58,022 bases of DNA from Phycisphaerae bacterium (GTDB taxonomy: Bacteria > Planctomycetota > Phycisphaerae > UBA1845), in assembly GCA_016929015.1 (NCBI GenBank), contig JAFGJQ010000296.1:1-58022 (forward strand), read 5' to 3'. Within the stretch, counting starts at the first letter, position 1; the number at the start of each line of letters is the position of its first letter. This document shows positions 6,647 to 54,870 of this stretch, piece by piece. The notes beneath the pieces were generated by a model. It ran no database searches and had not been told where the DNA came from. It worked only from the letters and a program-made list of their open reading frames with translations. The position numbers and the translations under genes were made by a program.

Positions 6647-6759
6647 GGCCGGCTGGTCTCCGCTGGTCCCGGCGCGCCGGGTCTCCGCAGGCGACTCGCC
6701 GTGGCAAGATGGCGAGAAAGCCAATCCCACAGAAGACCGGCTGGAAAGCCGGTCCCACA
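6647..6759 (+). repeat. Nested REP-like cluster: REP-A carrying a C[B] insertion, followed by an intact REP-A
   Basis: ggccggctgg|tctccgctggtcccggcgcgccggg|tctccgcaggcgactcgccgtggcaag|atggcgag|aaagccaatcccaca, then gaccggctggaaagccggtcccaca at 6735-6759. Confidence 0.85.
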
Positions 6760-6801
6760 CAAACAGTGCCGGTTCCATGTGGCGGGGCGGGCAGAAACGC
6801 A

Positions 6802-8043
6802 TCACTCGCCGTAGCGCGCGATGATTTCCTCGCGCGTTTTACCGAGGATTTCGTACTTGCGGCCGATCTTCGTGAAGGCGGCGATGGCGCGGTCGATGTG
6901 GGCAGGGTCGTGGCCGGCGGAGAGCTGGACGCGGATGCGGGCCTGGCCTTTGGGCACGACGGGGTAGTAGAAGCCGATGACGTAGATGCCTTCGGCGTAC
7001 AAGTCGCGCGCGATGTCCTGGGCCAGCTTCGCGTTGTAGAGCATGATGGGAACGATGGGGTGGACGCCGGGCTTGATGCCGAAGCCGGCCTGCGTCATGC
7101 CCTCGCGGAAGCGACGGGTGTTGGACTCCAGCCGGTCGCGCAGCTCCGTCGTCTCGGAGAGCAGGTCCATCACCGCGATGGCCGCCGCCGCCACGACAGG
7201 CGGCAGCGTGTTGCTGAACAGGTACGGGCGCGATCGCTGCCGCAGCAGCTCGATGATCTCCCTCCGCCCGCTGGTGAAGCCGCCGGACGCCCCGCCCAGC
7301 GCCTTGCCCAGGGTGGAGGTGATGACGTCCACCCGGCCCATCGCGTTGCAGTGCTCGGCGGAGCCGCGTCCGGTTTTCCCGAGAAAGCCGGTGCAGTGCG
7401 AATCGTCCACCATGACCAGCGCGTCAAACTTCTCGGCCAGGTCGCAGATGCGATCCACCTGGGCGATGGTGCCGTCCATGCTGAAGGCGCCGTCGGTGGC
7501 GACCATGCGGTAGCGGGCGTGCTGCGTTTCCTTCAGCTTCGCCTCCAGGTCGGCCATGTCGTTGTTCTGGTAGATGTAACGGGTGGCCTTGCAGAGCCGG
7601 ATGCCGTCGATGATGGAGGCGTGGTTGAGCTGGTCGGTGATGATGGCGTCGTCCTTGCCCAGCAGCGGCTCGAACAGCCCGCCGTTCGCGTCGAAGCACG
7701 CCACGTAGAGGATGGTGTCGTCCGTGCCCAGGAACCGGCTGATCTTGTCCTCCAGCTCCTTGTGAATGTCCTGCGTGCCGCAGATGAAGCGGACGCTGCT
7801 CATTCCGTACCCGCGGCGATCCAGCGAGGCACGGGCCGCCGCAATGACCTCGGGATGCGAAGACAGGCCCAGATAGTTGTTCGCGCAGAAGTTCAGCACG
7901 TCCGCCGGGGGCTGACCCTGCGGATACACCACGCGGATGTCCGCCGCCTGCGGCGAGACGATGACCCGCTCCTCCTTGTACAGCCCCGCCTGCCGGATGC
8001 TCTGCAGTTCTGCCTGAAGGTCCTGCTTCATTCGCCCGAACAT
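6802..8043 (-). CDS. kbl: Glycine C-acetyltransferase (2-amino-3-ketobutyrate CoA ligase)
   Basis: [43 protein letters not shown] before ATG 8043; adjacent to tdh. Confidence 0.96.
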
Positions 8044-8108
8044 AAGTCCACCTCCTACGGGGCCTGCCCTGTCCCCAAGATTCGCCGGCGGCGATCCGCC
8101 CGGCAACC

Positions 8109-8245
8109 CCTACAACCCACAGCTCGCCATCTCGCCACGACGAGTCGCCTGCGGAGACCCGGCGCGCCGGAACCTGCGGCGACCTACAGCCTACGGCCTA
8201 TAGCCCACAGCCTACGGTCTACAGCCCAAAGCCTACAGCCTATAC
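8109..8245. repeat. 7-bp tandem array (CCTACAG-like, 11 units) interrupted by the composite C[B] element at 8123-8182
   Basis: cctacaa cccacag [element] cctacag cctacgg cctatag cccacag cctacgg tctacag cccaaag cctacag cctatac. Confidence 0.9.
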
Positions 8246-9376
8246 TCACGGGTGCGTGACCCGGCCGGTGATGTCCGGATCGCGATCCAGCGAATCCTCG
8301 CGGACGGGCAGCGGGGCCGGCTGATCCGGCTTGAGAACGACTTTGCACGCCCGGCCGCCGGCCAGCAGTTCCATGGCCGAGTTGATCTCCTCAAACCGCA
8401 CGGTCTTGGTGATCAGTGGCCGGACGTCCACGGCGCCGGAGGAAAGGAGCCACTGCGTCTTGTACCACGTATCGAAAATCTTCCGGCCGTTAACCGCCAG
8501 CACGGTCAGGTTCTTGAAGATCATGTTCTCGGCCACGTCCAGCTCCACCTTCTTGGAGGGGATGCCGAACAGCACCACCGTTCCGCCGTTTCGGACGGCC
8601 TGGAACGCCGCGGTGATGGAGGCTGGCGCTCCGCTCATCTCCAGGATGATGTCGATGCCGAGGTTGCCGTTGGCCTCGACCAGGGCACGGACCACGTCCT
8701 TGCCGGGCAGTTCGATCGGGTTGAAGGCCGCATCCGCGCCCATCTTGCGGGCGAGGTCCAGGCGGAACTCGTTGACGTCCGTGGCGAACACGACGGAGGC
8801 CCCGGATGCCTTCGCGATGCCCACGCTGAAGCAGCCGATCGGCCCGCAGCCGAGGACCGCCACCGACTGGCCCGCCAGGTCGTTGCTAAGCGTGGCGAAC
8901 ACGGCGTTGCCGAACGGCTCCTGGACGGAGGCGACTTCCGGGGAAAGCTTCGCCCGGTCGTTGGTCCAGACCACCTGTTCGGGGATGGCGAGGTAGCTGG
9001 CGAACGCGCCTTCGCGGTCCACCCCCAGGATGCGCGTGTTGGGGCACAGGTGGCGCTGGCCGATGCGGCACTGGCGGCACATGCCGCAGGTGACGTGCGA
9101 CTCGGCGGAGACGAAGTCGCCGACCCGGGCATGTTCCACCTTGGCACCCACTTCGACGATGGTGCCGGCGAACTCGTGCCCGATGGTCAACGGCGGCTTG
9201 ATGCGGTGCTGCGACCATTCGTCCCACGACCAGATGTGCAGGTCGGTGCCGCAGATGCTGGCCGCCTCCACCTGGATGAGCACTTCGTCCGGCTCAATCT
9301 CGGGGATCGGAATGTCTTCGATGATGAGTCCCTTTTCCGCACGCTTCTTGCGGATGGCGGGCATGGTCCGGGGCAT
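8246..9376 (-). CDS. tdh: L-threonine 3-dehydrogenase
   Basis: ICGTDLHI, GHEF, structural Zn CxxCxxCx7C, GCGPIG; next to kbl. Confidence 0.94.
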   Translation of the reverse strand: MPRTMPAIRKKRAEKGLIIEDIPIPEIEPDEVLIQVEAASICGTDLHIWSWDEWSQHRIKPPLTIGHEFAGTIVEVGAKVEHARVGDFVSAESHVTCGMCRQCRIGQRHLCPNTRILGVDREGAFASYLAIPEQVVWTNDRAKLSPEVASVQEPFGNAVFATLSNDLAGQSVAVLGCGPIGCFSVGIAKASGASVVFATDVNEFRLDLARKMGADAAFNPIELPGKDVVRALVEANGNLGIDIILEMSGAPASITAAFQAVRNGGTVVLFGIPSKKVELDVAENMIFKNLTVLAVNGRKIFDTWYKTQWLLSSGAVDVRPLITKTVRFEEINSAMELLAGGRACKVVLKPDQPAPLPVREDSLDRDPDITGRVTHP

Positions 9377-9415
9377 ACGGTTTCCTTTGCTGTGCTTCCA
9401 TACTGCGCTTGCCGG

Positions 9416-10285
9416 TCAGTTGCGTTCCGGGGCGGGCGCCACCGGCTCCGGCAGGGGTTCCTTGACTCGGTTGAACTTCTCCGTTTCCGGCGGGAGCTGG
9501 AACGACTTCTCCACGTCGGTCGTGTTGATGCTTTGCTTTGTCAGGTCGGGGAAGACCGCCCGCATGATCTTGGCCGGCGGGCCGCTCCGATTGGCGGGAT
9601 CCGCCTCGTACGCCACGATCTTGACGGGCAGGTGCACGGTGCGGTCGACGAAGAACTCCAGCCGCGTGTATTGCTCGGCCAGCTTGCTGCCGGTCCGCGG
9701 GATGCAGACCAGGTGGTCCGTGTCGGCGGGGTCCTCCTTCGCCGCCGCGCTCAGCGTGACCTGGAAATGCCGCAGGATTTCGTCCTTGCGCTGTCCGAAG
9801 GGGATGGGGAACGGGGTCTTTTCCAGGCTGAACAGGTCGATCGTTTCGCCCACGCGGACGACCTCTCGCTCGATGACGGTCTGACTGGCCTCCTTGGCCT
9901 CGTAGAGCCAGCGGTCGCGGAACAGGTACCACTCCTTCTTCCGGACGACGATACCGCCCTCATGCATCTTCTCGAACAGGATAAAGAACGTGGGGTTCGG
10001 CTTCTCCCGGCGATAGCGGATCTCGCCGAACTTGGTGAAGTCGGACAGGCCGATCAGGTCTTCGACCGTATACTCGACGCGGCACCGGAGGTTCTGCACG
10101 CTCTCGCCGCGGGCCTCCATGGCTTCCAGAACCGTGCGGATCCGGGCCTCGGCCTCCGGCGTCGAGACGCCTGCCGGTTCCGTCACCGCCGGCTGGGATG
10201 CCGGGGCGGTCGCAGGTTGCGAATCGGCCGGTGGGGCCACCGGAGGCTCGCCGGCCAGACACAGGATAATCAGCCAGAAGGGCAT
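9416..10285 (-). CDS. Secreted protein, possibly LolA-like beta-fold
   Basis: Hydrophobic N-terminus, Pro/Ala linker, beta-rich body ending in a F-x-x-P motif. Fold assignment is inference. Confidence 0.55.
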   Translation of the reverse strand: MPFWLIILCLAGEPPVAPPADSQPATAPASQPAVTEPAGVSTPEAEARIRTVLEAMEARGESVQNLRCRVEYTVEDLIGLSDFTKFGEIRYRREKPNPTFFILFEKMHEGGIVVRKKEWYLFRDRWLYEAKEASQTVIEREVVRVGETIDLFSLEKTPFPIPFGQRKDEILRHFQVTLSAAAKEDPADTDHLVCIPRTGSKLAEQYTRLEFFVDRTVHLPVKIVAYEADPANRSGPPAKIMRAVFPDLTKQSINTTDVEKSFQLPPETEKFNRVKEPLPEPVAPAPERN

Positions 10286-10424
10286 ATACAGTCTCCCCGG
10301 GGCGGGCACGGCATTAGTGCGGGCCAACGTCCTCCCGCTCCTCTACGACGCGCCGTCATGCTAAGAAGTTTCTCTCAGGCGGGCAAGCCGAAGAGGAGTT
10401 CGAGTCACCTTCGCGGGCGACGGA

Positions 10425-11180
10425 TCACCCAGGTGGGTCCTCCGATGCGGGCCGCGCCGCCCGCCGACGCATCAGAACGCCGACGATAACCTTCAATCCG
10501 GCCAGCAACCCCAGGACAAGCTGGATGACGACAATCTCAACCGGACTGAGGTTCAGCGCAGCCGAGGACCAGGCAAAAAGCCCATATCGAAACAGACGGC
10601 CCACGAAATACGCCGACGCGAACCGGAACCGGTCGTAACGGGCCGCCACGGCCAGCACGCGGACCACGTCCACCGGAATCGGGATGAAACTGAACGCCGT
10701 GATGGTCCAGAACGGTGATACGCTGAACCAGCGAGCCGCGATGTCGTACACGTGGGTCTGGCGAACCCGCCCCACCGAACGGTATCGCAGCAAGAAGGTC
10801 AGGATGTGATACTCGTTGAGATTGGCCATGGCGGTCGCCAGGGCACAGGTCCCGGCAACCACGAGAACGCGCACCGGCACCGAATCCAGCAACCCCACTT
10901 CGTTGCTGGCCAGCAGCATGACCATCCACGCCGTCGGCAGCGGAAAAAACAGGCAGCACAGCGACAGGTAAAACACCCCCAGCGCCAGAAGCCAGAGGCC
11001 CAGGTGACCGTTTGATCCGGCTTCCGCCCGGCCGATCGCGGCTGTGCAGATGCCGGCCAGCAGCAGCAGCCAGGACAGGTAGACCACGAACCACAGGCGC
11101 AGGTTCTTCCGGTCCTCTCTGGATTCGCCGGTGGACGTCAGAACCCGCCCGAAGCGCTGCCACAGGGTCGAAACGCTCAC
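10425..11180 (-). CDS. VTT / DedA-YqaA-like membrane protein
   Basis: PLPTAW, FSFIPIPVDVVR, GRLFRY. GTG at 11180 overlaps the ATPase stop. Confidence 0.75.
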   Translation of the reverse strand: MSVSTLWQRFGRVLTSTGESREDRKNLRLWFVVYLSWLLLLAGICTAAIGRAEAGSNGHLGLWLLALGVFYLSLCCLFFPLPTAWMVMLLASNEVGLLDSVPVRVLVVAGTCALATAMANLNEYHILTFLLRYRSVGRVRQTHVYDIAARWFSVSPFWTITAFSFIPIPVDVVRVLAVAARYDRFRFASAYFVGRLFRYGLFAWSSAALNLSPVEIVVIQLVLGLLAGLKVIVGVLMRRRAARPASEDPPG

Positions 11181-11842
11181 CGGGCAGGCTCCAGGATGCC
11201 GTCCTTCATGTGCAGCAGGCGGTCCGCCGCGGCCGCACACTCCGCATCGTGTGTGATCATGATGATGGTCAGGCCGTTCGTTTCGTGGAATCGCCGGAAC
11301 AGGCGAATCACGGCCTCGGCATTGGCCGAGTCGAGATTGCCCGTCGGCTCGTCGGCCAGAAGAATGGCCGGCCGGCAGGCCACCGCCCGGGCAATCGCCA
11401 CGCGCTGCTGCTCGCCGATGGACAGGTGCCCGGGCTTGCGATGGGCGCATTCCAGCAGGCCCACGTCGCGCAGGGCCTGGGTCGCCTGGCCGTCGGGCGA
11501 GCCGCCGCGCAGGCGCAGGGCCAGTTCGATGTTGGCCCGGGCGGACAGGGTGCGGAGCAGGTTGAATCGCTGGAAGACGAATCCGATCTTGTCACGGCGG
11601 ATGCGGGTCCGGCCCTGTTCGCCCAGGTCCAGGCAGTCCACCCCGTCAATCCGCAGTTCTTCCGCCGCCGTGGGCGGCGTCATCAGGCCGAGCACGTTGA
11701 GCAGCGTGGTTTTGCCGCAGCCGGACGGCCCCATGACGGCCACGAATTCCCCCGCACGGATGTCGAGGTCAACCCCGCGCAGCACGGGCGCATCCCGATC
11801 TCCGTCGCGGTAAGACTTGCAGACGCTCCGGGCTGTCACCAT
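11177..11842 (-). CDS. ABC transporter ATPase (LolD/MacB-like)
   Basis: GPSGCGKT, LSIGEQQRVAIARA, LADEPTGNLD, ITHD. Confidence 0.95.
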   Translation of the reverse strand: MVTARSVCKSYRDGDRDAPVLRGVDLDIRAGEFVAVMGPSGCGKTTLLNVLGLMTPPTAAEELRIDGVDCLDLGEQGRTRIRRDKIGFVFQRFNLLRTLSARANIELALRLRGGSPDGQATQALRDVGLLECAHRKPGHLSIGEQQRVAIARAVACRPAILLADEPTGNLDSANAEAVIRLFRRFHETNGLTIIMITHDAECAAAADRLLHMKDGILEPAR

Positions 11843-11888
11843 GGGCCGAGACAAGAAATCCTCCGCTGAACGCCGTTCCCCACAGGGT

Positions 11889-13139
11889 CTATTCGTATGA
11901 CAGGGCGGTGGCCGGGTCCAGCCGGGCGGCCCGGTAGCCCGGGTACAACGCACTGACCGCCCCGCCGACCAGCCCCACCCCCACCGCCAGCAACAGAAAC
12001 CGAGCCTGGATGTCCACCGTGGACAGCGGCATCGCCACCGTCACGACGGCCCGCACGCCGTAGGCCAGCGCAATGCCGAACGCCGTGCCCAACGCGCAGA
12101 TCAGCATTGACTCGCACAGCACGGTGCGAAGCACGTATCGCCGCGTGGCCCCCAGCGAGCGCAGAACGCCGATCTCCCGGGTCCGCTCCAGGATCAGTGT
12201 GTACATCGTCAGCATGATGAACAGAAAGCACACCGCCAGGGCCACGCCGCTGGCCAGGTTGATGTACGTGTACATCTGGGCGAAGCTGTCGCGCAGCAGC
12301 GAGCCGTACTGCGTTTTGAGCTCCACCGTCGCATTGAGCTTGCCGGACAGCAGGTCCGCCGCCGCCTCCGCCTGCTCGGGATCACGCAGTTTCACGAAAA
12401 ACATGCTCGACCACGGCACGCCCCCGTTGAGGATGTGCCGGATGGTCTGAATGGGGGCGAACACGCGCCCCGCCACGCCCGCCTCCACGATGCCCACGAT
12501 GCGGAAACGGTGGCCGAATACGTCGGTCTCGTCGCCGACCTTGTATCCCCCCACACGGGCCAGCCGGGTGTCGATCAGCAGTTCGCAGCCCGCGTGCAGG
12601 TCTTCGGGCCGCACGAGTTCCGGGTCGTACCGGCGCTGGTCGCCGCGCAGAGTCTCCAGGCGATCCTTGAAGGCCCGGCCGCCGGGGAACACTTCCCCCG
12701 CCTCCAGGCGCCGACTGCCCAGGAACCCCGGCATGTCGTCCGGGTCGATCCCGAACAGCCGCTGCTGCTGCCCGCCCAGGCGGATGGTGTCCAGAAAGAC
12801 CGGCACGGCCCGGTCGACCACCGGGCGGCCGTCCAGCTCGGCGGATTGGATGAGATGCACGTACGTGTCCGGAAAAATGGCGCCGCCCTGGAAGATGACG
12901 TTGGCGTGGCGCGGCAGCACGATCAACTCCGCGTCCACGCTCTCCATCCGGCCGGCCACCTCGTTCAGCGTGCCGTGTGAGAGGCTGAGTTGCACAACCA
13001 TCATGCCCACGCCAATTCCGACGGCCGCGGCGCAGAGCACGGTCCGCAGCTTATGGTGCATCAGGTTCGCCAGCGGCAGCAGCACGGTTTCGCGTTCTCC
13101 GGCGGGTTCGGGCGGTCCTTCCGGGTCTGTGCATGCCAT
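11889..13139 (-). CDS. ABC permease, MacB/FtsX (LolC/E-like) family
   Basis: N-terminal TM, periplasmic domain, ERTREIGVLRSLGA, C-terminal YPGYRAARLDPATAL. Confidence 0.92.
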   Translation of the reverse strand: MACTDPEGPPEPAGERETVLLPLANLMHHKLRTVLCAAAVGIGVGMMVVQLSLSHGTLNEVAGRMESVDAELIVLPRHANVIFQGGAIFPDTYVHLIQSAELDGRPVVDRAVPVFLDTIRLGGQQQRLFGIDPDDMPGFLGSRRLEAGEVFPGGRAFKDRLETLRGDQRRYDPELVRPEDLHAGCELLIDTRLARVGGYKVGDETDVFGHRFRIVGIVEAGVAGRVFAPIQTIRHILNGGVPWSSMFFVKLRDPEQAEAAADLLSGKLNATVELKTQYGSLLRDSFAQMYTYINLASGVALAVCFLFIMLTMYTLILERTREIGVLRSLGATRRYVLRTVLCESMLICALGTAFGIALAYGVRAVVTVAMPLSTVDIQARFLLLAVGVGLVGGAVSALYPGYRAARLDPATALSYE

Positions 13140-13159
13140 GCCCCGATTCCGCGGGGCTC

Positions 13160-13187
13160 AGTGTAGTCGGTGTGCCGATCGGTTCAA
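13160..13187 (-). promoter_or_regulatory. Putative sigma70-type promoter for the ABC operon
   Basis: TTGAAC-16-TACACT on the minus strand upstream of the permease. Confidence 0.4.
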
Positions 13188-13255
13188 ACGGTGCCGCCGC
13201 GGCGTATAGCCCGGGCGGCACTCCTTGAGAGAACACGAGCCTTTGCACCTGCGCC

Positions 13256-13296
13256 AATAAAGAAAGCACCAAACGCCACGGGGGCATCCGGTGCTT
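13256..13296 (-). terminator. Intrinsic terminator
   Basis: Minus strand AAAGCACCGGATGCC-CCGT-GGCGTTTGGTGCTTT followed by CTTTATT. Confidence 0.7.
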
Positions 13297-13450
13297 TCCG
13301 GAGGGGAAAGAAGCGTCATTCGCTTCGTAGCGTGCGAATTTCTGTTCAGGATCGCCGGCCCGGCGTTTGTGGCCCTCCTGTCCCGCCCAGATCCAACCCC
13401 CCACACGTAAGCTACGGTAATCCGTTAGCCGGTGGGGCCGAAGCCTTACA
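13258..13450 (-). ncRNA. Putative orphan small RNA (~190 nt) or attenuating leader
   Basis: Bounded by TTGCGG-17-GATAAT (13457-13485) and the terminator at 13256-13296. Internal hairpins, no convincing ORF. Confidence 0.4.
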
Positions 13451-13525
13451 CTTAGCATTATCGGCTGTTCTTCCCCCGTCCGCAATGGGGTATTTGCCGT
13501 AAAACTCTGCTGTACAAAGGGAAAC

Positions 13526-13570
13526 AGAGGTTGACGCTTTGCTTTCTTATCGAGAACGGGGTCAACCTCT
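13526..13570 (-). terminator. 10-bp inverted repeat after the glycogen synthase stop (terminator or operator)
   Basis: agaggttgac-N25-gtcaacctct, followed on the minus strand by gtttcccttt. Confidence 0.45.
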
Positions 13571-13583
13571 CTTGCCTAGATTA

Positions 13584-15383
13584 TCAGGACGTGAAGGCCC
13601 GAGACAGGGCCAGTTCGTGGGCATGCCGGTAATACGAGTAGAGACTGTTCCAGTCGAAGAGTTCGGACAGTCGCTCCGTGCGGTTCCGCAGAGCAATCCG
13701 CTCTCGACGACTGAGGCGGGTGAACTCGTGCAGAATGCGAGCGAGCTGGCCGATGGACTCGTCCGTGCTCACGTCCCTCCGGTTCACGATGAAGAGTCCC
13801 TTGTGTTCGTGGTCTTCCACGTGGGCATGCACGAAGGCGCCGAAGCCGGAGAGGTTTGAGCAGACGGACGGCACGCCCATCACCGTGCATTCGGCCGGTG
13901 TGTAGCCCCAGGGCTCGTAATACGACGGAAAGACGCCGAGGTGGCAACCCCGCACGAATTCCTCGTAATCCATTCCGAAGAGCGGATTCGTCGAGACGAT
14001 GAATTCCGGGTGATACACCACTTTCACCCGATCCTGCGCCGTGTTGAAAAGCCCTCGATGCCGAAGGTGGTTCAAGATGGGGTCGTGGGCATCGTCCACC
14101 ATGTTGTGAGTCACGACCGCCGGCGGGACCGTTCGCCGGCGTGAGTAGATCATCCGCTTGAGGCGGACAATTTCCGCATCGTTGATCAGCGCGTCCACGT
14201 CGGGAAGCCGCCCGCCGGCCACCGCCCGCACGATTCGCTCTCCCACCCGATTGGTAATCTGATTGCAGGCCTTGCGCAGCTCCTCGATCATGAACCGGTT
14301 CTTCAGCACGTCCACGTTCATGCTGTGCGTCGCCGCCGGAACCACCAGGAACGCCACGACCGTCACGTCGCTGCCCTCCTGCCGCAGGATCCCGTTGAGC
14401 CGGGCCAGCGCCTCGATGAACAGATCGATGCCCTTGTTGCGATACTCATAACGGCCGGCCACGAACGTGTAGAGGGTCTTGTCCAGGTCAAACGAGTATG
14501 ACCCGAAGAAATGCCCGCGGACGAACTCGTGAATCTTCTCCTTGTACTCCGCGTGCAGCGTTTGGAACTGGTGCAGCGCCTCGAACCGCTCCACGCGAAG
14601 GCCGTTCGGCAGCACCACCTCCGGCCGGCGGCCCAGGAGATGCTCCGCCTCGCGGCCCGTCACTTCCGAAACGGTTGTGAACACGTGTGCCCCGTGGGCC
14701 GCCGCCCGCTCGATGGAGTGGCGATGGTGCACGTTCAGCCGTCCGGCCTCTGCGTCCGGGTTCATCCAGGGCAGCCGTCGGTAGAAATCACCATCCGTCG
14801 CGCAGACGTATCGTCCCAGCAATGTGGCATGGGTTGTGAACAGCGTCGCCACGGGCAGATTGTGGTGGCGGATCAGCGGAATGGCCATCGAGGCCATCCA
14901 CTCATGGAAGTGAGCGATGGCCCGATGCCGGCTGCCGTGGCACCGGGCAAACTCCTGGAAGAAGCGACAGACCATGGCGCCGAAGACCACGGCGTCGTTC
15001 GTTTCCGGATCGCCGCCGGGCGACGAGAGCCGACAAGACTCCCAGAACCATCTCTTCCAGTTATCGAGATTGAAGTACGCGTGGCCGACGTCCAGCAGTA
15101 GGACCCGCGGATTGCCCGTGATCAGCCACCGTCCGAAGTGGGCCTGGATGCCTTCCTGTCGCAGTGTGGCCAGCACCGGCTTGAGCAGTTCCCCCGGCTC
15201 CAGGGGCTCGTACTCGACACTGGCCGTCTCGTGGACATACGGTCCGATCAGCGTGTACCAGTCTCCCCAGGCTGCGACGGCATGGGGCGCCTTCGACCGC
15301 AAGACCGTGTAGATCCCTCCAATCTTGCGGCACGTTTCCCAGGAAATCTCAAAAAGAACGGGTTGTGAGGGGTCGGTACTCAT
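13584..15383 (-). CDS. Glycogen synthase, GT3 (eukaryote/Bacteroidota-type)
   Basis: FEISWE, KIGGIYTV, HFHEW, FTTHATLLGRY, GRYEYRNKG, FPSYYEPWGYTPAEC. Confidence 0.93.
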   Translation of the reverse strand: MSTDPSQPVLFEISWETCRKIGGIYTVLRSKAPHAVAAWGDWYTLIGPYVHETASVEYEPLEPGELLKPVLATLRQEGIQAHFGRWLITGNPRVLLLDVGHAYFNLDNWKRWFWESCRLSSPGGDPETNDAVVFGAMVCRFFQEFARCHGSRHRAIAHFHEWMASMAIPLIRHHNLPVATLFTTHATLLGRYVCATDGDFYRRLPWMNPDAEAGRLNVHHRHSIERAAAHGAHVFTTVSEVTGREAEHLLGRRPEVVLPNGLRVERFEALHQFQTLHAEYKEKIHEFVRGHFFGSYSFDLDKTLYTFVAGRYEYRNKGIDLFIEALARLNGILRQEGSDVTVVAFLVVPAATHSMNVDVLKNRFMIEELRKACNQITNRVGERIVRAVAGGRLPDVDALINDAEIVRLKRMIYSRRRTVPPAVVTHNMVDDAHDPILNHLRHRGLFNTAQDRVKVVYHPEFIVSTNPLFGMDYEEFVRGCHLGVFPSYYEPWGYTPAECTVMGVPSVCSNLSGFGAFVHAHVEDHEHKGLFIVNRRDVSTDESIGQLARILHEFTRLSRRERIALRNRTERLSELFDWNSLYSYYRHAHELALSRAFTS

Positions 15384-29003: not shown

Positions 29004-29104
29004 GACCGGCTGGAAAGCCGGTCCCACAGAGAGTCATGGAGAGACCGGCTGGAAAACCGGTTTCACCAAAAGGCCGGGAGAGGCGGGTTGAAAGCCGGCC
29101 CCCA
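29004..29104 (+). repeat. REP-A cluster (one intact and two degenerate copies)
   Basis: gaccggctggaaagccggtcccaca at 29004-29028; gaccggctggaaaaccggttt at 29043; gggttgaaagccggccccca at about 29086. Confidence 0.75.
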
Positions 29105-41896: not shown

Positions 41897-41973
41897 GACC
41901 GGCTGGAAAGCCGGTCCCACACCGGAGGCCGGTCCCACACCGGCACCGGTCCCACAATACCGCCGGTCCCACA
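41897..41973 (+). repeat. REP-A plus three tandem 3' half-copies (CCGGTCCCACA x4)
   Basis: Full copy at 41897-41921; half-copies at 41929, 41946, 41963. Confidence 0.85.
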
Positions 41974-44572: not shown

Positions 44573-44624
44573 TGTGGGACCGGCTTTCTCGCCCCGGCGA
44601 GTCGCCTGCGGAGACCAGCCGGTC
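44573..44624 (-). repeat. REP-A with 27-bp element B inserted in its loop
   Basis: Minus strand gaccggctgg|tctccgcaggcgactcgccggggcgag|aaagccggtcccaca. Confidence 0.88.
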
Positions 44625-45505: not shown

Positions 45506-46393
45506 GATCCAACCTCCTCCTTACCTAGGTAAGCAAAACGCACCGCCCCGAGGCCGGCCTTGCCTGGGACAGGCAGACTTCACGTGCCTGATGACGACGT
45601 GTCACCGGTGCCAGAGCCCATGACTTCGCAACGACAAGACCTGTCACAGATGCGTCGCTGCTTTCCCATACTCCAAACCGTTTCATACGAGAGAGAACGC
45701 GCACTTCTTCGCCCGCCTGACACCTGGTTCTGCGGTCGGCGGGTGCGACCTGCAGTGATTCGCACATGGCCCCCAAAGCTGTCCGATATTTTAACTCTGC
45801 GCGGCGGCTGACGCAAGCATATCGCGCCGAATGGACACGTGTATCAACAGTCTGCCGACGTCTGAACGGCCCTTCGTGCGGGGCGCCCGGAGCATCTTTC
45901 TTCTGCGAAAACGCCGCGACGGAGAGTGAGCCGGGAAACGCTCCATCTCCGTGGACCCGCCGACCTTGCCATGCCCCCTTCGGGACGAGTGTGACCGGAA
46001 ACGGTCAGGAAACCGGCGTCGAACCCGCTCTTGTGGTCCTTTGTGGCACTCGGTGTCGCTCCTTTCGCTTCGGGCCGACGCAATCCCGTGACAGGTTACG
46101 ATCAAAGCGGAGAACGCCGGCGGCGGAGAACGGCGGGCATGGTGCGTTTTTTCTGGCTCCACAGGCCCGGCAGACTCTGGCCTTTGGCCCTCAAGGCCCG
46201 ATATACTTTGTAGGAAGGACGAATGCTGCCTCGCAATGACACTGCCTGAGGCGGCGTGCGTTCGCCGCCGGGACAAACGGTTGCAGCGATGCGCGCAACT
46301 GACTAGAATGTACCGGTGTGGCAGGCTCGGGCCGCGGACATTCCCGGTCCACCGGCAAACACGCCCGACAATCCAACGAGAAGGTGGTACTCC

Positions 46394-47299
46394 ATGTGCA
46401 GCACATCCGTTCGCAGACGACCCGGGGGTTTCACGCTGATCGAACTGCTGGTGGTGGTGTCGATCATCGCCCTGCTCATCTCGATCCTCCTGCCTTCGCT
46501 GAAGAAGGCGCGGGACCAGGCCAAGCTGACGCTCTGCGCCACGAGGCTGCACGACATCGGCGTCTCCCTCATGAGCTACAGCCACAACTACAACCGCTTC
46601 CCAACGCAGAATTCGCTGGGCACAACGTCCACCGACCCGGTGGACCGATCGATGCGCGAGGGAGCCGGCTTCTGGACGTACGCCGTGCACAAGGAACTCG
46701 CCTCATATATGGGCGGGCTTCGGGCAAACGTCAATGGCGAGCGAACGATGGCCCACGAGGTGTTCTACTGCCCGTTCGCGCCGGCCGAGAAGGTCCACAA
46801 TTCGCAGCGCCTTTCCGGCCCCGGTACGGGCTACGGGCTGGAGGGAGCCGAGGACGTGTACCTGCACATCGGGTACACGTACGCTGGCGGCATGCACGAA
46901 GTGAGCAACGATCCGGTCAAGAAGCAGGGCGTGTGGCCGGGGACCAGCGATGATTTGAAGAACCACATCCTCAAGAAGCGCCGGTTCTACGTGAAAACGG
47001 AGCCGGACTCCACGCGCGTGCTGATGGCCGACGCGGTTGTGGCGTGGAAGGGCGGGCCGGGAACTGGCATGTGGCGCATCAATCACGGTGACGGGTGGGA
47101 CAAGAACATCCCGGCAGTGTCCGCTTTCCGGGCCCCGCGGATCGATGGCGCGAGCGTGATGTACGGCGACGGGCACGTGGAGTGCAAGAAGACGTCCTAC
47201 TTCAGAGAAGTGGCGAACGTAACGGGCGGGACGATGGGACACCAAAGTGCAAAGGGAAACGCGACCCTGATCTATGGTAATGATTTCCTCTGGTGGTAA
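46394..47299 (+). CDS. Prepilin-type N-terminal cleavage/methylation protein (DUF1559-like)
   Basis: GFTLIELLVVVSIIALLISILLPSLKKAR..A....C, FYCP, MYGDGHVE. Confidence 0.9.
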   Translation: MCSTSVRRRPGGFTLIELLVVVSIIALLISILLPSLKKARDQAKLTLCATRLHDIGVSLMSYSHNYNRFPTQNSLGTTSTDPVDRSMREGAGFWTYAVHKELASYMGGLRANVNGERTMAHEVFYCPFAPAEKVHNSQRLSGPGTGYGLEGAEDVYLHIGYTYAGGMHEVSNDPVKKQGVWPGTSDDLKNHILKKRRFYVKTEPDSTRVLMADAVVAWKGGPGTGMWRINHGDGWDKNIPAVSAFRAPRIDGASVMYGDGHVECKKTSYFREVANVTGGTMGHQSAKGNATLIYGNDFLWW

Positions 47300-47329
47300 C
47301 TCACTTCATCAAAGGAGGCTGGAAGGAAT

Positions 47330-48445
47330 ATGAACGCACAACGATTCTCCTGGTGTGTCGCCGTTCTGGTGCTGGCCATGAGCGGGCTGGCGGCCCAGGC
47401 AGACGTGATGACCCGCTACGAGTTGGAGTACAATTCTGACGATCTGAGCCACGGCGTCAGCGCGACCGACCTGATCAACGGGTTCGGAGTGAATACGGAC
47501 GGAACGCCGCTCGATCAGGGCATCAACGAGAGCGCCATCGCACCGTACACGGATGGCATAATCGACCTCACTCCCGGCCAGGAGGTGTTCTCGTGGCTGA
47601 TGAAATCCACCGTGGACTGTCTGCCGCTGAATGAGGGGCAGCCGAGCGACGGGTTCCACCCTCTGACGGGCAACGGAGATATGCCCGACCTGGTGGACGG
47701 CGTGGCCGGCCCGGTGCTCAAGAGTGTGCTGCGAGACTATGGCCGGGCCTCGCTGGTGGTGCGCTACGGCTTCTCCCAGCCGACGGACATCGGCTACATC
47801 CGCGTGATCGGCGGCAACCTGCTCAACCGCGATGGCCGGGTGTTCCACAACTACGACGTGTACTACCGGCAGGGGGACTGTGGTGACGGGATCTGCCCGG
47901 CCCACGGCGACCTGTTCTCCGGCATGATCGGGTTCGATGAGTTCGTGCCCCTGGCTCTGGACGTCTCGACCGGCCCGGTCGGCGTGGGAAACACGGGCCT
48001 CTGGCAGGGCTCGTTGACGGAGGTCATGGATCGGGACGCCAAGGTCATGATCCCCGGCTGCACGGACCTGCGGTTCGTGTTCTACTGCGTGGACAACACA
48101 ACCAGTTTCTTCCTGGATCCGTGGCAGGGAAACGCGCAGGAGTCGCCGCAGTACCAGATGGACTGCCCCGATGTGGAAGGTCGGGACACCGACGGCCGGC
48201 AGAAGGCATTTGTAGGCCCGATTATCAAGGAAATCGACGTCTTCAGTCCGGAAGACCACTTTGACTTTGCCCGCGGCGACATCGACTACGACGGCGATCG
48301 CGACATGGTGGACTTCGCAGCGTTCCAGGGTTGTTTCGAGGCGGACATCAACACCAACGGTTGCTTCCGGTTCGACTACACCCAGAACAACGCGATCGAT
48401 GCGGATGACCTGCCCGGCTTCGCGGCCGACATGACCGGCCCGTGA
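47330..48445 (+). CDS. Secreted protein: shared domain (with insertions) + intact C-terminal dockerin-like pair
   Basis: Signal peptide, AAGGAGG RBS; DLVDG, VRYGF, RVFHNYDVYY, IKEIDV; GDIDYDGDRDMVDF...FDYTQNNAIDADD..MTGP. Confidence 0.85.
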   Translation: MNAQRFSWCVAVLVLAMSGLAAQADVMTRYELEYNSDDLSHGVSATDLINGFGVNTDGTPLDQGINESAIAPYTDGIIDLTPGQEVFSWLMKSTVDCLPLNEGQPSDGFHPLTGNGDMPDLVDGVAGPVLKSVLRDYGRASLVVRYGFSQPTDIGYIRVIGGNLLNRDGRVFHNYDVYYRQGDCGDGICPAHGDLFSGMIGFDEFVPLALDVSTGPVGVGNTGLWQGSLTEVMDRDAKVMIPGCTDLRFVFYCVDNTTSFFLDPWQGNAQESPQYQMDCPDVEGRDTDGRQKAFVGPIIKEIDVFSPEDHFDFARGDIDYDGDRDMVDFAAFQGCFEADINTNGCFRFDYTQNNAIDADDLPGFAADMTGP

Positions 48446-48476
48446 CGATCGCCGAAAGCGAGGGCGTACGAACAAA

Positions 48477-48519
48477 GGCCGAGGCCCGGTTCCCCGAGAA
48501 CCGGGCCTCGGTCGCTTTG
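48477..48519 (+). terminator. Strong hairpin terminator (possibly bidirectional)
   Basis: ggccgaggcccggttc-cccga-gaaccgggcctcggtc then gcttt. Confidence 0.75.
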
Positions 48520-48633
48520 TGCGCCGGACCGAGATTCGCGCTGGATTTGCCCGACCGAGATTCCTGTGTTTGCATGAAAGCAGCGTGTTCTCAGAGCAGC
48601 CGGGCGAACGCTCGGCATGACGTGCAAATCGGG

Positions 48634-48951
48634 CTACATGCGGACGGCCGGATGCTGTTGGGGCGGCGCGGGGGGAAGCCCGGTGACGGAGGCGCGGGGA
48701 GTGCCGAACTTCGGCGCCGATCCGGCCTGCTCCTGGTGGCGATGGACGACCTGGCGGCGGCGCTCTTCACGCTGCCTGGCCAGATGGCTTTGCACGCGGT
48801 GAGTGATGGCGAGCACGGTCAGCACGATCGTGAGAAGAACGAAGGCCCAGAACAGCAGGGGGTACAGGTCGCTCGTCGACTTCTCCGCGAACGTCCTGTG
48901 GACCGCCGTCACACGCTCATGCGCGCTGAGTTGGGCGAGTAATCCGAGCAC
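48634..48951 (-). CDS. Small single-TM hypothetical protein
   Basis: TM LLFWAFVLLTIVLTVLAI followed by an Arg/Glu-rich helix. Confidence 0.5.
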   Translation of the reverse strand: MLGLLAQLSAHERVTAVHRTFAEKSTSDLYPLLFWAFVLLTIVLTVLAITHRVQSHLARQREERRRQVVHRHQEQAGSAPKFGTPRASVTGLPPAPPQQHPAVRM

Positions 48952-49200
48952 CCATCACTCTCCAGACTTCCCGACGCACAGATTCGGCTGCCCCGGGTCA
49001 GTCCCCGGGCCCCGCCGATTCCCCCGGCGGCAGATAAAGGCGCCGTCCGGAACGTACATCGACGGTTCTCGGACACGTCTGGAGTAACCTGCGGCGTTTG
49101 CAAATGCCGAGCTTTCGGGGCAGAATACGCCCGTCGTGGCGGCTGGCTCATTCAACTTGTCGACAACGTCGTCGGCGCGGCGCATTGGAGCAGCGACAGC

Positions 49201-50364
49201 ATGAAGATCCACGAATACCAAGCCAGAGAACTCCTGGCCCAGGCGGGCGTGCCCGTGACCCCCTTCGAGATGGTTACGACGCCGGAGCAAGCTACGGCGG
49301 CCTTCGACCGTTTCGGCGGCACCGTGGTTGTAAAAGCCCAGGTGTTTGCCGGCGGGCGCGGCAAGGCGGGCTTCGTCAAGTTGTGTGAATCGCGTCAGGA
49401 AGTGCATGATGCCGCTGGCTTTATGCTCGGCAACCGCATGGTTTCCAAGCAGACCGGACCCGAGGGCGTGGGGGTTCACCGCCTGCTGGTCGCCGTCGCC
49501 GCCGACATTGATGCCGAGTACTACGCGGCGGTTGTGCTGGACCGATCCCAGCGATGCCCCGTGGTCATGGTCTCGCGCGAGGGTGGCGTAGAGATCGAGG
49601 AGGTGGCGGCCCGGAACCCGGACGCCATCTTCAAGCAGTGGCTTCATCCGCACCTGGGGCTTCAGGGCTTCCAGGCCGCCCGGCTGGTACATGCCCTTGG
49701 CCTGGAAGACAAAGAGCAGGCCAAGGCGGCCGCCCGCGTGCTGCGTGGACTGGTCGACGTTTTTGTGAAGTACGACTGTAGCCTGGCGGAAATCAACCCG
49801 CTGGTGCGGACGAGCAGCGGTGAAATCCTCGCCATTGACGCCAAGATGAACTTCGACGATTCCGCTCTGTTCCGCCAGCCCCAACTGCGGGAGATGCATG
49901 ACGAGTCGGAGGACAACCCGATGGAGGTCCGGGCCCGCAAGGCGGATCTGACCTACATCGCGTTGAACGGGAACATTGGCTGCTTGGTCAACGGAGCGGG
50001 GCTGGCCATGGCGACCATGGACATCATCAAGCTGCATGGCGGCGAGCCGGCCAATTTCCTCGACGTGGGCGGATCGGTGAGCCAGGAGGGCGCAACGGAG
50101 GCGTTCCGCATTATTCTGGCCGACCCCAAAGTGAAGGGCGTGCTGGTCAACATCTTCGGCGGGATCGCCAAGTGCGACACGATCGCCGAGGCCTTGATTG
50201 CGGCCGCCCGGGAAATCGGATTCAAGGTACCCGTCGTGGTTCGGCTGGAGGGCACGAACGTCGAGCGTGCCCGGCAGTTGTTGAAGGAGGCGGCGATTCC
50301 ACAGCTTATCCCGGCTTCTGACCTGACCGACGCCGCGCAGAAGGTCTGCGCGAAGGTCGTGTAG
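49201..50364 (+). CDS. sucC: Succinyl-CoA ligase beta subunit
   Basis: [50 protein letters not shown]. Confidence 0.97.
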
Positions 50365-50417
50365 AGACGTATCCATGGCGGCCGGCCACCCTGTCCGGTC
50401 GCGCCACACAGGGGTAT

Positions 50418-51293
50418 ATGCGTCGCGCCCGTATCGGAACTATGCTTCTTGCCGCTTGGATCGTTGCGGGAGGCGGCGCCTGCCAGGACGGCCGATGGCC
50501 CGTCTGGGGCGCGGCCGACGCGCAGAAGGCGGACGGGGCCGCCGACGCTCCGCCCGACCCCTTCCGCACTCCGCTGAGCAGCAGTCTCTCTGCACCGGCC
50601 GACCGCCCCACGATCGTGGAGCTTCACTTTGACGTGATGCGGGTGGATTTGCCTCATGATTCCGTCCGGCATTCCGCGAAGCTCTGGAACCATGTGGATG
50701 AGTTGCGTGTGGAACCCGGCCAGAGCGTGCTGCTGGGCCGCAACGGCATCCGGGTGGGGGTGGCCCCGGCCGACGCCTGGCCTGCCATGCAGGCCGTTCT
50801 GGAGGCGCACGGGGCGCGTGCGACCCGACGCCAACATGCGGTACAGCCCGGCTACCCGTTGACCCTGGACATCGGGGACGTTTTGGAGGGTGAAACGGTT
50901 TTTTCCTATGACGGGCAGGGCGGGCTGAAGGGTCGGACGTTCGGTGCGGGCCAGAAATACATTCACCTCGACTACGTGGTGGAAGCGGACGATCCGCCAC
51001 GCGTGCTGCTGCGCGTCACCCCGGACGTGCATGTTCGGTCGGCCGACCGGCGGTGGCAGGAGGAGGAGGGGGCATACGTGGAGAAGCCGGTCGATGGAGG
51101 CCACTCGTATACGGAGCTTTCCGCGGCCGTGTCCCTGACGCCGGGACAGATTCTGGTGATCGGGCCGGGCCCGCAGGCCGAGATGGCCCACTTGTTGGGG
51201 AATCGGTTTTTCGAGCGAATCGAAGCCGGCGTACGGTATGAAACGCTGTACTTTGCCACACCGCAGTTGTTCCGTTCAGAAACCCCGGAGTGA
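50418..51293 (+). CDS. Hypothetical lipoprotein
   Basis: Signal region ending GGAC; beta-rich body. Confidence 0.65.
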
Positions 51294-51300
51294 TGCACCC

Positions 51301-52428
51301 ATGGCGGCCGAAGAGCCAACCCGCAGCAAACGCCTCCAGCGAGGCATGATCGGCTTCGGGGCGGACTACTACCGTCTTCTCTTCGAGCACGCGGGCGTCG
51401 CCATGGTCGGCACGGACGCCCAGTACCGCATCAAATCCTGGAACCAGGTCACCTCTCGCATGTTCGGGGCCGCGGCCGGGCGCATGGTGGGAACGTCCCT
51501 GCTGGCGGTGATCCCGCAGGAGGGACGAGAAGACGCCGAACGGGCCCTGAAGGCGGCCATCGAGCAGGGAGTGACCAGCCAGTTCGAGTTTGTGCATCGT
51601 GACGAAAAGGGCGTGCGGCGCCAGTTGGCCGTCACGGTCTCGACCATTCCCGACCGCAAGGGAACCGGTGTCGGCGCGCTCGCCTGCTTTCGTGACATCA
51701 CCAACCGCGTGCAACTGGTGGAGCAACTGGCCCAATCCCGCAAAATGGCTTCCCTGGGCGAGATGGCCGGTGCCATGGCCCACCACTTCAACAACATTCT
51801 CGGCGGCATCGTCACCAGTGTGGACTTTGCCCTGGCCAGCACGGACCCGGAGGTGCAGCAGCGCGTCCTCCTGAAATCGGCCCAGGCCCTCGGCCGGGCC
51901 ACGCGACTGGTGGACGGCCTGCTGGCCTTCGCGGAGGGAGACCGGCGTCACGAGGACGTGGCCGACCTGACGGAAACGATCACGCAACTCGTCGACCGGA
52001 TGGAACCGGAGATGCGGGAGCGCGGCATGGAACTGCATTTTGACGCCCAGCCCATTCCACCGATCCCGGTGTACCGGAACCGCATCGACACCGTGCTGCT
52101 GAACCTGATCGACAACGCCATCCAGGCCATGAAGGGCGGCGACGTGCTGACGATCCGGCTGGGTTCCGTCGGCGAGAAGATCTGCCTGGAAGTCGAGGAC
52201 ACGGGCTGCGGAATGAGCGACGACGAGCTGTCCCGCATTTTTGAACCGTTCTACAGCCGGCCGCATACTCTCCGTGGCTCCCGGGACCGGGGCGAGGGGT
52301 TGGGATTGGCCGTCGTGCATGGGATCGTCCAGGACGCCGGCGGCTCGATTTCCGTCACCAGCCGGCTGGGCAAGGGTACCACCTTCACGATCTACCTTCC
52401 GGCAGTCGGCACAGTCACCCGCAGTTAG
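51301..52428 (+). CDS. Cytoplasmic PAS sensor histidine kinase (NtrB-like)
   Basis: PAS (WNQ...FRDIT), AHHFNN H-box, NLIDNA, DTGCG, FEPFYS, GLGL. Confidence 0.93.
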   Translation: MAAEEPTRSKRLQRGMIGFGADYYRLLFEHAGVAMVGTDAQYRIKSWNQVTSRMFGAAAGRMVGTSLLAVIPQEGREDAERALKAAIEQGVTSQFEFVHRDEKGVRRQLAVTVSTIPDRKGTGVGALACFRDITNRVQLVEQLAQSRKMASLGEMAGAMAHHFNNILGGIVTSVDFALASTDPEVQQRVLLKSAQALGRATRLVDGLLAFAEGDRRHEDVADLTETITQLVDRMEPEMRERGMELHFDAQPIPPIPVYRNRIDTVLLNLIDNAIQAMKGGDVLTIRLGSVGEKICLEVEDTGCGMSDDELSRIFEPFYSRPHTLRGSRDRGEGLGLAVVHGIVQDAGGSISVTSRLGKGTTFTIYLPAVGTVTRS

Positions 52429-52778
52429 GGATTCGAAGGCACGCTGCATTCGCCGTTCCGGCACCGCAACGTAAGTGCCGTCCCAGCAGCAACCTGGGGA
52501 TGGTCTGTAGCCGGAAACCCAGAGGACGGTATAATACGCTGGCGGTGGTACGGACGCCGCGGAGAGAGCATGACGGCTCACGAGTCCGCCTGGGCCCACT
52601 GCCCTGGAGGCCGGATCGGCGTCCTGCTAAAGACCCACGGAACGGTTGGCCGATCTTTCGGTAGGGTCGGGACTTGTCCCGGAACACGGGGTCGCTACGA
52701 ATGTCCAGCGTTCGGACGTGCGGAAGCGCTTCCCGCAACCCACCGGGGCATGGCCGTTTCGGCGACTGCGGCTGTTGT

Positions 52779-53657
52779 ATGCGTTTTCCCCTGAAACGAA
52801 GTTCGAATCGGAACCGTCGGCTCCTGGTGGGCGTGCTGCTCTGCGCGGCGGTTGGACTCCAGTGCCAGCAGGCGGGCCCGCGTGACACGTTGGCCGGCAT
52901 GGACGAAGTGCCCATCGAGATGGCCCAACTGGCGGGCGCGGCCGCGGACCCGGCCGACGAGATGGAACGCCTGGCCCGCGAGGATCCCCTGGCGTTCTTC
53001 CAGGCGTGTCGAGACCGCTACGACCGGGAGGTCCAGGACTACGACTGCACGTTCATCAAGCAGGAGCTCGTCGAGGGAAAGCTCACCGCCGAGCAGTGGA
53101 CGAGCGTCCGCTTCCGTGAAGAGCCGTACAGCGTCGACATGACCTGGACGCGGAACCCCATGCTCGTCTCCCGCGCCCTGTACGTGGAAGACAAGTGGTG
53201 GAACGGCGACACGCCCCAGGCGTGGGTCCGGCCGGCGGGGGCCCTGCTGAAGCTGGTCAAGCTCAAGCAACCCATTCGCGGAAAGGCGGCGGGCACGCAA
53301 TCCCGTCGAACGATCGATCAGTTCGGCTTCCGGAACTCGCTGGACCTGATCATCCATTACTCCGAGAAGGCGCAGAAAGAAGGAGTGCTGGACCTGGAGT
53401 ACATCGGTCAGGCCACCGTGGGCGAGCGTCCGACGTACGTGTTCGAGCGCCGGCTGCCGTACAACGGCGACGAAGAGATCTACCCGGACCGACTGCTCCG
53501 CGTGTTCGTGGACAAGGAGTGGCTGCTTCCCACCTGCTGCATCTCCTACGCCGATGACGACGGGAGCCAGTTGCTGGGCAAGTACGTCCTGGTCGACGTC
53601 AAGCTGAACCCGGGTTACACCGACGCCGACTTCGATCCGGAAGTGATCGGTTTTTAG
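52779..53657 (+). CDS. DUF1571-like exported protein
   Basis: DYDCTFIKQE, FREEPYSVDMTW, SRRTIDQFG, DKEWLLP, NPGYTDADFDP; lipobox-like GLQC. Confidence 0.75.
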   Translation: MRFPLKRSSNRNRRLLVGVLLCAAVGLQCQQAGPRDTLAGMDEVPIEMAQLAGAAADPADEMERLAREDPLAFFQACRDRYDREVQDYDCTFIKQELVEGKLTAEQWTSVRFREEPYSVDMTWTRNPMLVSRALYVEDKWWNGDTPQAWVRPAGALLKLVKLKQPIRGKAAGTQSRRTIDQFGFRNSLDLIIHYSEKAQKEGVLDLEYIGQATVGERPTYVFERRLPYNGDEEIYPDRLLRVFVDKEWLLPTCCISYADDDGSQLLGKYVLVDVKLNPGYTDADFDPEVIGF

Positions 53658-53708
53658 GCACGCCTGCACGGCCGGAACCACGCGGGGTGGCGGGCGCCGC
53701 GCATTCTC

Positions 53709-53737
53709 TTGACGGGGTTCCACCGCCCACCTATCCT
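53709..53737 (+). promoter_or_regulatory. Putative sigma70-type promoter (very short leader)
   Basis: TTGACG-17-TATCCT, 10 nt before ATG 53748. Confidence 0.5.
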
Positions 53738-53747
53738 TTGCCCCTCA

Positions 53748-54806
53748 ATGGCAGCGGACGACCAGAAAGAAATCAACCTCGTTACGGGCGCGACCGGGCT
53801 GCTCGGCAGCCACATCGCCGAGCAGTTGCGTAAGCGCGGCAGGGCCGTGCGCGCCCTGGTCCGGCCGGGCAGCGACATCCAGTTCCTCAGTTCGATCGGC
53901 GTGGACCTGATGACCGGCGACATGACGGACCGCACCTCGCTCGATCGGGCGTGTCGCGGCGCGGCCACGGTGTATCACTCCGCCGCGAAGGTCGGGGACT
54001 GGGGCCCCTGGGAAGCCTTCCAGAAGATCACGATCGAAGGCACGGACCACCTGGTCAAGGCCGCCGTCGCCGCCAAGGTCAAGCGGTTCATCCACATCAG
54101 CTCCATCAGCGCGTACGGGCACGTCGACGGCAAGGGACTGGTCCTCGATGAAACGGCGCCGCTGGGGCAGAGCCTGTATCGCTGGGCCTACTACAGCCGC
54201 TCCAAGGTGGAGGCCGAACGGCTGGTTTGGGAGACGCACAAGGCGGGCAAGCTCAAGGCGACGGTGATTCGCCCAAGTTGGCTCTACGGCGAGCGGGACC
54301 GAACCACGATGGGGCGGCTGATCGCCTCCATCCGGTCGGGCAAGATCAAGCTGCTGGGCAAGGGTGACAACCGGCTGAGCCTGTCCCACGCGGCGAACGT
54401 GGCGGAGGCGTGCATCCTCGCCGCCGATTCAGACAAAGCCGTGGGCGAGGCGTACAACTGCAGCAACGACGGCGATATCACGCAGAAGCAGTACTTTGAC
54501 CTGATCGCCAAAACGCTGAACCAGCCGCCGATCCAGAAGAGCGTGCCGTACCCGGTGGCCCGGTTCGCGGCGTTCTGTCTGGAGTGCGTCGGACACCTGT
54601 TCAAGCTGACCAAGCCGCCGCTGGTCACACGGTACTCGGCCTGGCTGATGGGCCGGCATTCGTTCTTCGAGAACAGGAAGATCCGCGAGCATCTGGGCTG
54701 GTCACCGACGATCCCTTACGAAGAGGGCATTCCCGCCGCGGTCCGGCACTACCTCGACGAGCATCAAACCATCTCCCGCCGCCAACCGGCGGCGCCCAAG
54801 CCCTGA
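53748..54806 (+). CDS. Extended SDR, 3-beta-HSD / NAD-dependent epimerase-like
   Basis: TGATGLLG, HSAAKV, YSRSK, IRPSWLYG. Confidence 0.88.
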   Translation: MAADDQKEINLVTGATGLLGSHIAEQLRKRGRAVRALVRPGSDIQFLSSIGVDLMTGDMTDRTSLDRACRGAATVYHSAAKVGDWGPWEAFQKITIEGTDHLVKAAVAAKVKRFIHISSISAYGHVDGKGLVLDETAPLGQSLYRWAYYSRSKVEAERLVWETHKAGKLKATVIRPSWLYGERDRTTMGRLIASIRSGKIKLLGKGDNRLSLSHAANVAEACILAADSDKAVGEAYNCSNDGDITQKQYFDLIAKTLNQPPIQKSVPYPVARFAAFCLECVGHLFKLTKPPLVTRYSAWLMGRHSFFENRKIREHLGWSPTIPYEEGIPAAVRHYLDEHQTISRRQPAAPKP

Positions 54807-54815
54807 CAGCTCAGG

Positions 54816-54870
54816 CTGTAAACTGTGGACTGTAGGTCGCCGCAGGCGACTCGCCGTGGCGAGCTGTGGG
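54816..54870 (+). repeat. CTGTRGG 7-mer array with element B inserted
   Basis: ctgtaaa ctgtgga ctgtagg|tcgccgcaggcgactcgccgtggcgag|ctgtggg. Confidence 0.85.

Follow-up and report, generated by a model that had tools for sequence, protein, structure and literature searches.

A 27-nucleotide hairpin element placed precisely inside other repeats of a Phycisphaerae genome

The 58,022-nucleotide contig JAFGJQ010000296.1 of a Phycisphaerae bacterium (here the window, an entire 58-kb contig) carries four copies of a 27-nucleotide (nt) element, B, each lodged inside another repeat. The hosts are REP-A, a repetitive extragenic palindrome (REP); tandem heptamers of the form CTGTRGG; and element C, a 33-nt unit that itself sits in the other two. 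The genome, G000, is a draft of 5.8 Mb with 65% GC in 530 contigs, and its nearest relatives match public metagenome-assembled genomes (MAGs) labelled Phycisphaeraceae. Congeners are called G001 to G005 and a Lacipirellula MAG G041, and a C-number after G000 denotes a contig. All four repeat clusters of the window fall between open reading frames, and Rfam returned no match in the window. The features are as follows.

6647-6656, plus strand: degenerate REP-A left arm (GGCCGGCTGG), the outermost level of a nest
6657-6681, plus strand: left part of element C (TCTCCGCTGGTCCCGGCGCGCCGGG)
6682-6708, plus strand: B within C, the innermost level
6709-6716, plus strand: right part of element C (ATGGCGAG)
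6717-6731, plus strand: degenerate REP-A right arm and tail (AAAGCCAATCCCACA)
6735-6759, plus strand: empty REP-A
8109-8122, minus strand: a pair of heptamers flanking C[B] on one side
8123-8182, minus strand: C[B] between heptamers, with B at 8131-8157; absent from the orthologous site in G001 and G002
8183-8238, minus strand: array of eight CTGTRGG-type heptamers; two to three units in G001 and G002
29004-29028, plus strand: empty REP-A, followed by a degenerate copy from 29043
41897-41921, plus strand: empty REP-A, with half-REPs after it at 41925-41939 and 41959-41973
44573-44624, minus strand: REP-A[B], with right arm at 44573-44587, B at 44588-44614 and left arm at 44615-44624; the orthologous REP-A of G002 is empty
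54823-54836, plus strand: two heptamers preceding B
54837-54863, plus strand: B in its TCG form, between heptamers
54864-54870, plus strand: heptamer following B

This arrangement agrees with the original prediction, a reading of the letters alone, in the coordinates and strands of all four B copies and in the empty REP-A copies at 6735, 29004 and 41897. The C[B] units it described were also found, with C-left at 6657-6681 (plus) and 8158-8182 (minus) and C-right at 6709-6716 and 8123-8130, and the nest of three levels, REP-A[C[B]] at 6647-6731, was confirmed, its REP-A arms being degenerate. The original prediction saw no transposase encoded in the window, and the contig indeed holds no Y1 gene.

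B begins with TC[T/G]CC and ends with GGCGAG, and the sequences that flank it vary with the host. It is an imperfect palindrome that folds into one 11-bp hairpin, which has a single bulge and the loop ACT, with a free energy of -10.9 kcal/mol (z -3.2); inside REP-A it is predicted by folding to stack on the REP-A stem, giving a longer hairpin. When the window was searched with the 24-nt core of B, allowing up to three mismatches, four matches were obtained against 0.00 expected from 100 shuffles.

Across G000 we found 81 copies of the B family, comprising 68 of B1 and 13 of B2, a 26-nt variant. More than half (44) interrupt the REP-A loop at its centre (GACCGGCTGG^AAAGCCGGTCCCACA), 16 between CTGTRGG heptamers and 7 inside element C, after the C palindrome; the other 14 are mixed, truncated or elsewhere. 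The orientation of B is fixed relative to its host repeat, and the base on its 3' side is A, C or G. It had been proposed that every insertion follows GG: this dinucleotide stands directly 5' of B in 76 of the 81 copies, and the generalization fails for the remaining five. The broader proposal, that B lies inside other repeats and that its removal restores the host, holds genome-wide. REP-A is found empty 91 times and filled 43 times, with no conservation of the DNA beyond its 25-nt core in either set, while element C occurs as four empty and seven B-filled copies plus rearranged ones. Just two exact sequences account for 28 of the 43 copies of B borne by REP-A, an indication of a probable recent burst of B in G000.

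Heptamers form 112 clusters with 275 units in G000. Runs of at least two units are interrupted eight times, by a B-family element or C[B] in three cases, by 4-7 nt in four and by an unrelated 31 nt in one. The array at 8109-8238 has two units before C[B] and eight after it, versus two to three in G001 and G002 (L019, L020). In relatives from two other samples, seen as contigs assembled from public sequencing runs, which break at repeats, B at 54837 is present and two extra heptamers follow position 54862. Heptamer copy number therefore changes quickly.

The sequence of B is not uniform across its hosts, a dependence that the original prediction had not noted. Its third base is T in 44 of 48 REP-A contexts and in all 8 C contexts, and G in all 18 heptamer contexts; the third base of element C follows the same rule, being T in REP-A and G between heptamers. 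We considered whether the third base of B is set by the -4 base of the target, which fits G000 and fails in other lineages, and rejected this. Hybrid and rearranged copies of B and C occur in contigs C369, C239, C96 and C484. The 8-nt end ATGGCGAG is at times tandemly duplicated, or appended to B without C-left (G000 C239:124-158 and C484; G002 L260), which suggests slippage or recombination at element ends. The C palindrome is also found as TGTGGGACC-CCGGCGCGCCGG-GGTCTCT, a second type of REP that shares the GTGG head of REP-A (G000 C327:28016 and C484:4699).

Presence/absence polymorphism in sister genomes had been put forward as a check on mobility. We ran this comparison over 2.10 of the ~4.7 Mb of G002 plus targeted loci, and found exact empty host repeats at five orthologous sites: the host repeat is present without the element in G002 or G001 at window position 44588, at 8123-8182 (C[B]) and at C136, C324 and C447 (B2). 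Where REP-A is the host, an empty REP-A is in place in G002 at three of the four informative sites. No target duplication was seen at any filled/empty pair, as the original prediction had supposed from the window, and a miniature inverted-repeat transposable element of a DDE transposon was rejected as an identity for B on this ground. At three sites (C326, C239 and C210) B is common to G000 and a congener. Congener synteny breaks at window sites 54837 and 6682, which are thus uninformative, and site C400 could not be aligned with a congener.

Copy numbers obtained with identical patterns in all six genomes were as follows.

B 22-mer, up to one mismatch: G000 58, G001 4, G002 6, G003 0, G004 0, G005 1
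Empty REP-A 20-mer: G000 82, G001 124, G002 205, G003 0, G004 2, G005 2
C-left 21-mer: G000 11, G001 1, G002 9, G003 0, G004 0, G005 0

With 82 empty REP-A copies against 124 and 205, G000 is not richer in REP-A than its relatives; rather, more of its copies are filled, about one third. In G002, the closest complete congener, all nine C copies are empty and all lie in REP-A loops.

REP-A is a true REP. A passage of Quentin et al. (2018, PMC6006769) defines REPs by a GTAG or GTGG that stands 0-2 nt 5' of a hairpin whose basal stem measures 7-20 nt and whose loop measures 2-5 nt; read on the reverse strand, REP-A is GTGG followed by GACCGGCT TTCC AGCCGGTC, with an 8-bp stem and a 4-nt loop. In G002 (G002:C84), inverted REP-A arrays flank a gene resembling a REP-associated tyrosine transposase (RAYT), with DHVH...YIENNP motifs and a Y1_Tnp score of 26.7 bits against a cut-off of 23. 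The suggested search for RAYT or Y1 genes flanked by these repeats thus gave one beside REP-A, in G002, and none flanked by B among nine Y1 loci of G000 and 29 in other genomes.

Several further observations concern REP-A and its gene. The whole REPtron (REP-A arrays plus RAYT-like gene) lies within purH of G002, at ~1081-1957 of L194 (G002:C84:18888-21424), and an 845-codon frame stays open across it; purH of G000 (C119) lacks the REPtron and has 19 nt where G002 has 877 nt. A methyltransferase-like open frame of 1114 codons in G000 C339 (frame 5308-8652, minus-strand coordinates) contains a RAYT-like stretch of Y1; the repeated peptide NHGQDARATNA stands on both sides of this stretch, suggesting a further in-frame REPtron. 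At the G002 site aligned to G000 C136, the empty REP-A adjoins two copies of GTAGGGTCCGCCGTGCGGACC, a further REP family with a GTAG tag.

B is not confined to the genus. Its exact 22-mer was found in 66 stretches from ~30 MAGs among 185,579 species genomes. A sample of the class yielded it in 7 of 301 genomes, which fall in 4 of 210 genera, and showed variants specific to lineages. Each lineage carries B in a different host repeat, nearly always after GG: in a Lacipirellula REP, in a CCCTCTCCC...GGGAGAGGGCAGG^GTGAGGG repeat, or at CTGGAGG or GGTTCAG heptamers. G041 has its own REP, which is empty 243 times and filled by B in at least 17 copies, at one shared position in the loop; loop insertion by B is thereby replicated independently. 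Some B-bearing contigs labelled Dehalococcoidia may be mis-binned, because their GC content is 63-67% and one of them runs collinear with a contig of G000 at 70-75% identity. One copy lies in a closed Nitrospiraceae chromosome, in a context of 43% GC. No high-identity DNA beyond ordinary gene similarity surrounds B in other MAGs, viral contigs gave no B match, and the sequence of B was not found in the literature searched. In three Planctomycetota MAGs (L101, L053, L093), a small conserved gene, MRALSIRQPYAEL[ISPRRVACG]DLRGIK..., carries B (27 nt, 9 codons) in frame. This gene was assigned to no Pfam family, and Pfam did not bear out an ASCH-like identity considered for it.

B and C are thus discrete, ultra-small, non-autonomous units placed precisely inside other repeats, as had been proposed, with matching empty sites both in G000 and at orthologous positions of congeners. 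From its discrete ends, its several host types and the empty orthologous sites, it follows that B is very likely an independently inserting module that targets other repeats. We propose that this non-autonomous module is placed in one orientation directly 3' of GG, without target duplication, at sites that probably turn single-stranded, namely the middle of a REP loop, the point where two tandem heptamers meet and the foot of C's palindrome. Insertion at such sites would produce hairpins nested in hairpins, up to three deep. B would be moved in trans by an enzyme of the Y1/HUH kind (RAYT or IS200-like) that cuts and joins single-stranded hairpins, and after a first entry into a host family some of its spread may reflect copying between host repeats, which the strict link between sub-variant and host type also allows. 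By its anatomy (a hairpin, one orientation, a short motif, no duplication and entry at loop centres), the presumed movement resembles single-strand Y1/HUH transposition. We put the probability of this full explanation, a module moved in trans by a Y1/HUH-kind enzyme for hairpin DNA, at roughly 0.45.

Several results weigh against it, most of them concerning the enzyme, and the earlier attribution to an HUH or RAYT enzyme did not gain support. None of the nine Y1_Tnp matches in G000 is flanked by B, C or REP-A, and B flanks none of 29 Y1 loci in other genomes; the one B found near a Y1 gene (1.4 kb away, in L173) has another gene in between. Between G000 and G041, both rich in B, no Y1 protein of one matches any of the other above 57% identity, and among three other B-bearing MAGs G043 and G044 gave no Y1_Tnp match and G042 only weak ones. 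No ortholog of the REP-A RAYT was found in G000, where the best match is 30% identical, and no Y1/HUH gene was found that co-varies with B. A longer element with B ends and a gene (tnpA) was not found in G000 or at the 66 loci, in assemblies that are incomplete. The orientation of repeats relative to local GC skew, a weak proxy, is without bias (filled 18:16, empty 46:27, p = 0.40). At C19 the entire REP-A[B] is missing from G002, which fits movement of the whole composite. Finally, the sub-variants are tied to host type, in the TCT and TCG forms and in a GGGG loop form of B that occurs only in REP-A; this does not fit free hopping from one shared pool, which would not predict it. Separately, IS200-like Y1 genes of ~140 aa (G000 C523, C394, C246 and C229; L173) are flanked by their own GTAGCC-plus-hairpin repeats, one with 10 copies. 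Genes of this type occur in G000, G001 and G002 but were not found in G003-G005, a pattern that parallels that of REP-A.

The confinement of sub-variants by host, the restriction of the GGGG form to REP-A, the hybrid and rearranged copies and the negative enzyme search would all be accounted for if B had entered each host family rarely and then spread from filled to empty repeats by short-homology copying (gene conversion or template switching), with no dedicated enzyme. The homology arms available for this are just ~10 and ~15 nt, however, and copying leaves unexplained both the first entries, into at least three host types here and several elsewhere, after GG and in one orientation, and the near-identical sequence of B across classes. 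As a complete account we regard it as somewhat unlikely.

The missing composite at C19 would also be expected if REP-A[B] were a long-hairpin variant of REP-A amplified whole by a RAYT, B itself being immobile, and long REP hairpins with a second stem are described in a part of Quentin et al. (2018, PMC6006769). Such amplification accords poorly with the empty REP-A at the other informative G002 sites, with B between heptamers, in C, in unrelated REPs of other lineages and in a genome that lacks REP-A, and with a total of REP-A copies lower in G000 than in G002 and no cognate RAYT detected in G000; we judge it improbable. It is equally improbable that B recurs through usefulness and not mobility, as a functional site under selection (such as one bound by a protein, or an RNA hairpin), since the near-invariance of B across classes and its position near gene 3' ends, typical of REPs, are set against base-exact presence and absence at orthologous sites, nesting inside other repeats, 58 copies in one genome versus 0-6 in congeners, a patchy distribution and the lack of an Rfam match.

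Under our preferred reading of an inserting module moved in trans, a more specific form, in which B is a second-order parasite of REP loops and heptamer arrays moved by the host repeat's own RAYT/Y1 enzyme, seems to us rather unlikely. If it were true, the same 27-nt sequence could cross classes, perhaps phyla, and invade unrelated REP families. B is among the smallest apparently mobile DNA elements, and its clean anatomy (a hairpin and an entry point that are both defined, the latter after GG in the middle of the loop, together with hundreds of empty targets and a bona fide REP/RAYT host system) makes it a clean case for how tiny elements move. The apparent recent burst in one genome compared with close relatives makes this question testable by biochemistry and strain comparison. 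REP loops, moreover, can be colonised by other repeats, and the long hairpins built up by such nesting may affect genome stability and the ends of transcripts.

The closest known precedents of B are the small dispersed repeats (SDRs) of cyanobacteria, insertion sequences (IS) that target REP loops, and mosaics of REPs. Elements of the IS200/IS605 family and their gene-less derivatives (palindrome-associated transposable elements) have hairpin ends and insert in one orientation, 3' of a short motif, without target duplication. B is like them in inserting 3' of a fixed motif, in one orientation and with no duplication, but no TnpA is linked to it and, as described above, a full-length tnpA-bearing relative was not found in the incomplete assemblies; to our knowledge B is several times smaller than any functional IS200/IS605 derivative. 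IS1397 is one insertion sequence that targets REPs. REP hairpins are given as specific targets of ISPpu9/10, ISPsy8, ISPa11 and ISRm22 in a section of Tobes and Pareja (2006, PMC1525189). These share with B the REP hairpin as target, but they are full insertion sequences of ~1 kb or more with their own transposase, whereas B has 27 nt, carries no gene and leaves no target duplication.

Most REP families are lineage-specific, whereas B is not. In size and shape B is like a REP, and the result of its insertion is a mosaic of small modules, as in the REP/REPIN-RAYT systems and bacterial interspersed mosaic elements treated in parts of Bertels and Rainey (2011, PMC3116915), Di Nocera (2013, PMC3733652) and Quentin et al. 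(2018, PMC6006769). It differs in forming no doublet and in residing inside other REPs. B does not belong to the REPs or REPINs: it has no GT[AG]G head (neither GTAG nor GTGG), no adjoining RAYT and no association with a cognate one.

We know of no enzyme that moves the cyanobacterial SDRs. For the movement of elements below 30 nt, B provides a second, independent case. SDRs are non-autonomous elements of 21-27 nt that insert base-exactly into repeats, become nested and inhabit genomes rich in tandem heptamers; B is likewise shorter than 30 nt, dispersed, base-exact in other repeats, nested and patchy among relatives. SDR4, SDR5 and SDR6 of Nostoc and its relatives were reportedly the subject of Elhai et al. 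2008 (Genome Res 18:1484). SDR5 is stated in a portion of Elhai (2015, PMC4390886) to insert precisely between HIP1's third and fourth nucleotides. B differs from the SDRs in belonging to another phylum, in its unrelated sequence and in consisting of one strong hairpin with REP loops as its target; it is, moreover, nearly unchanged across Planctomycetota classes, and for it we document both orthologous empty sites and the RAYT of its host REP.

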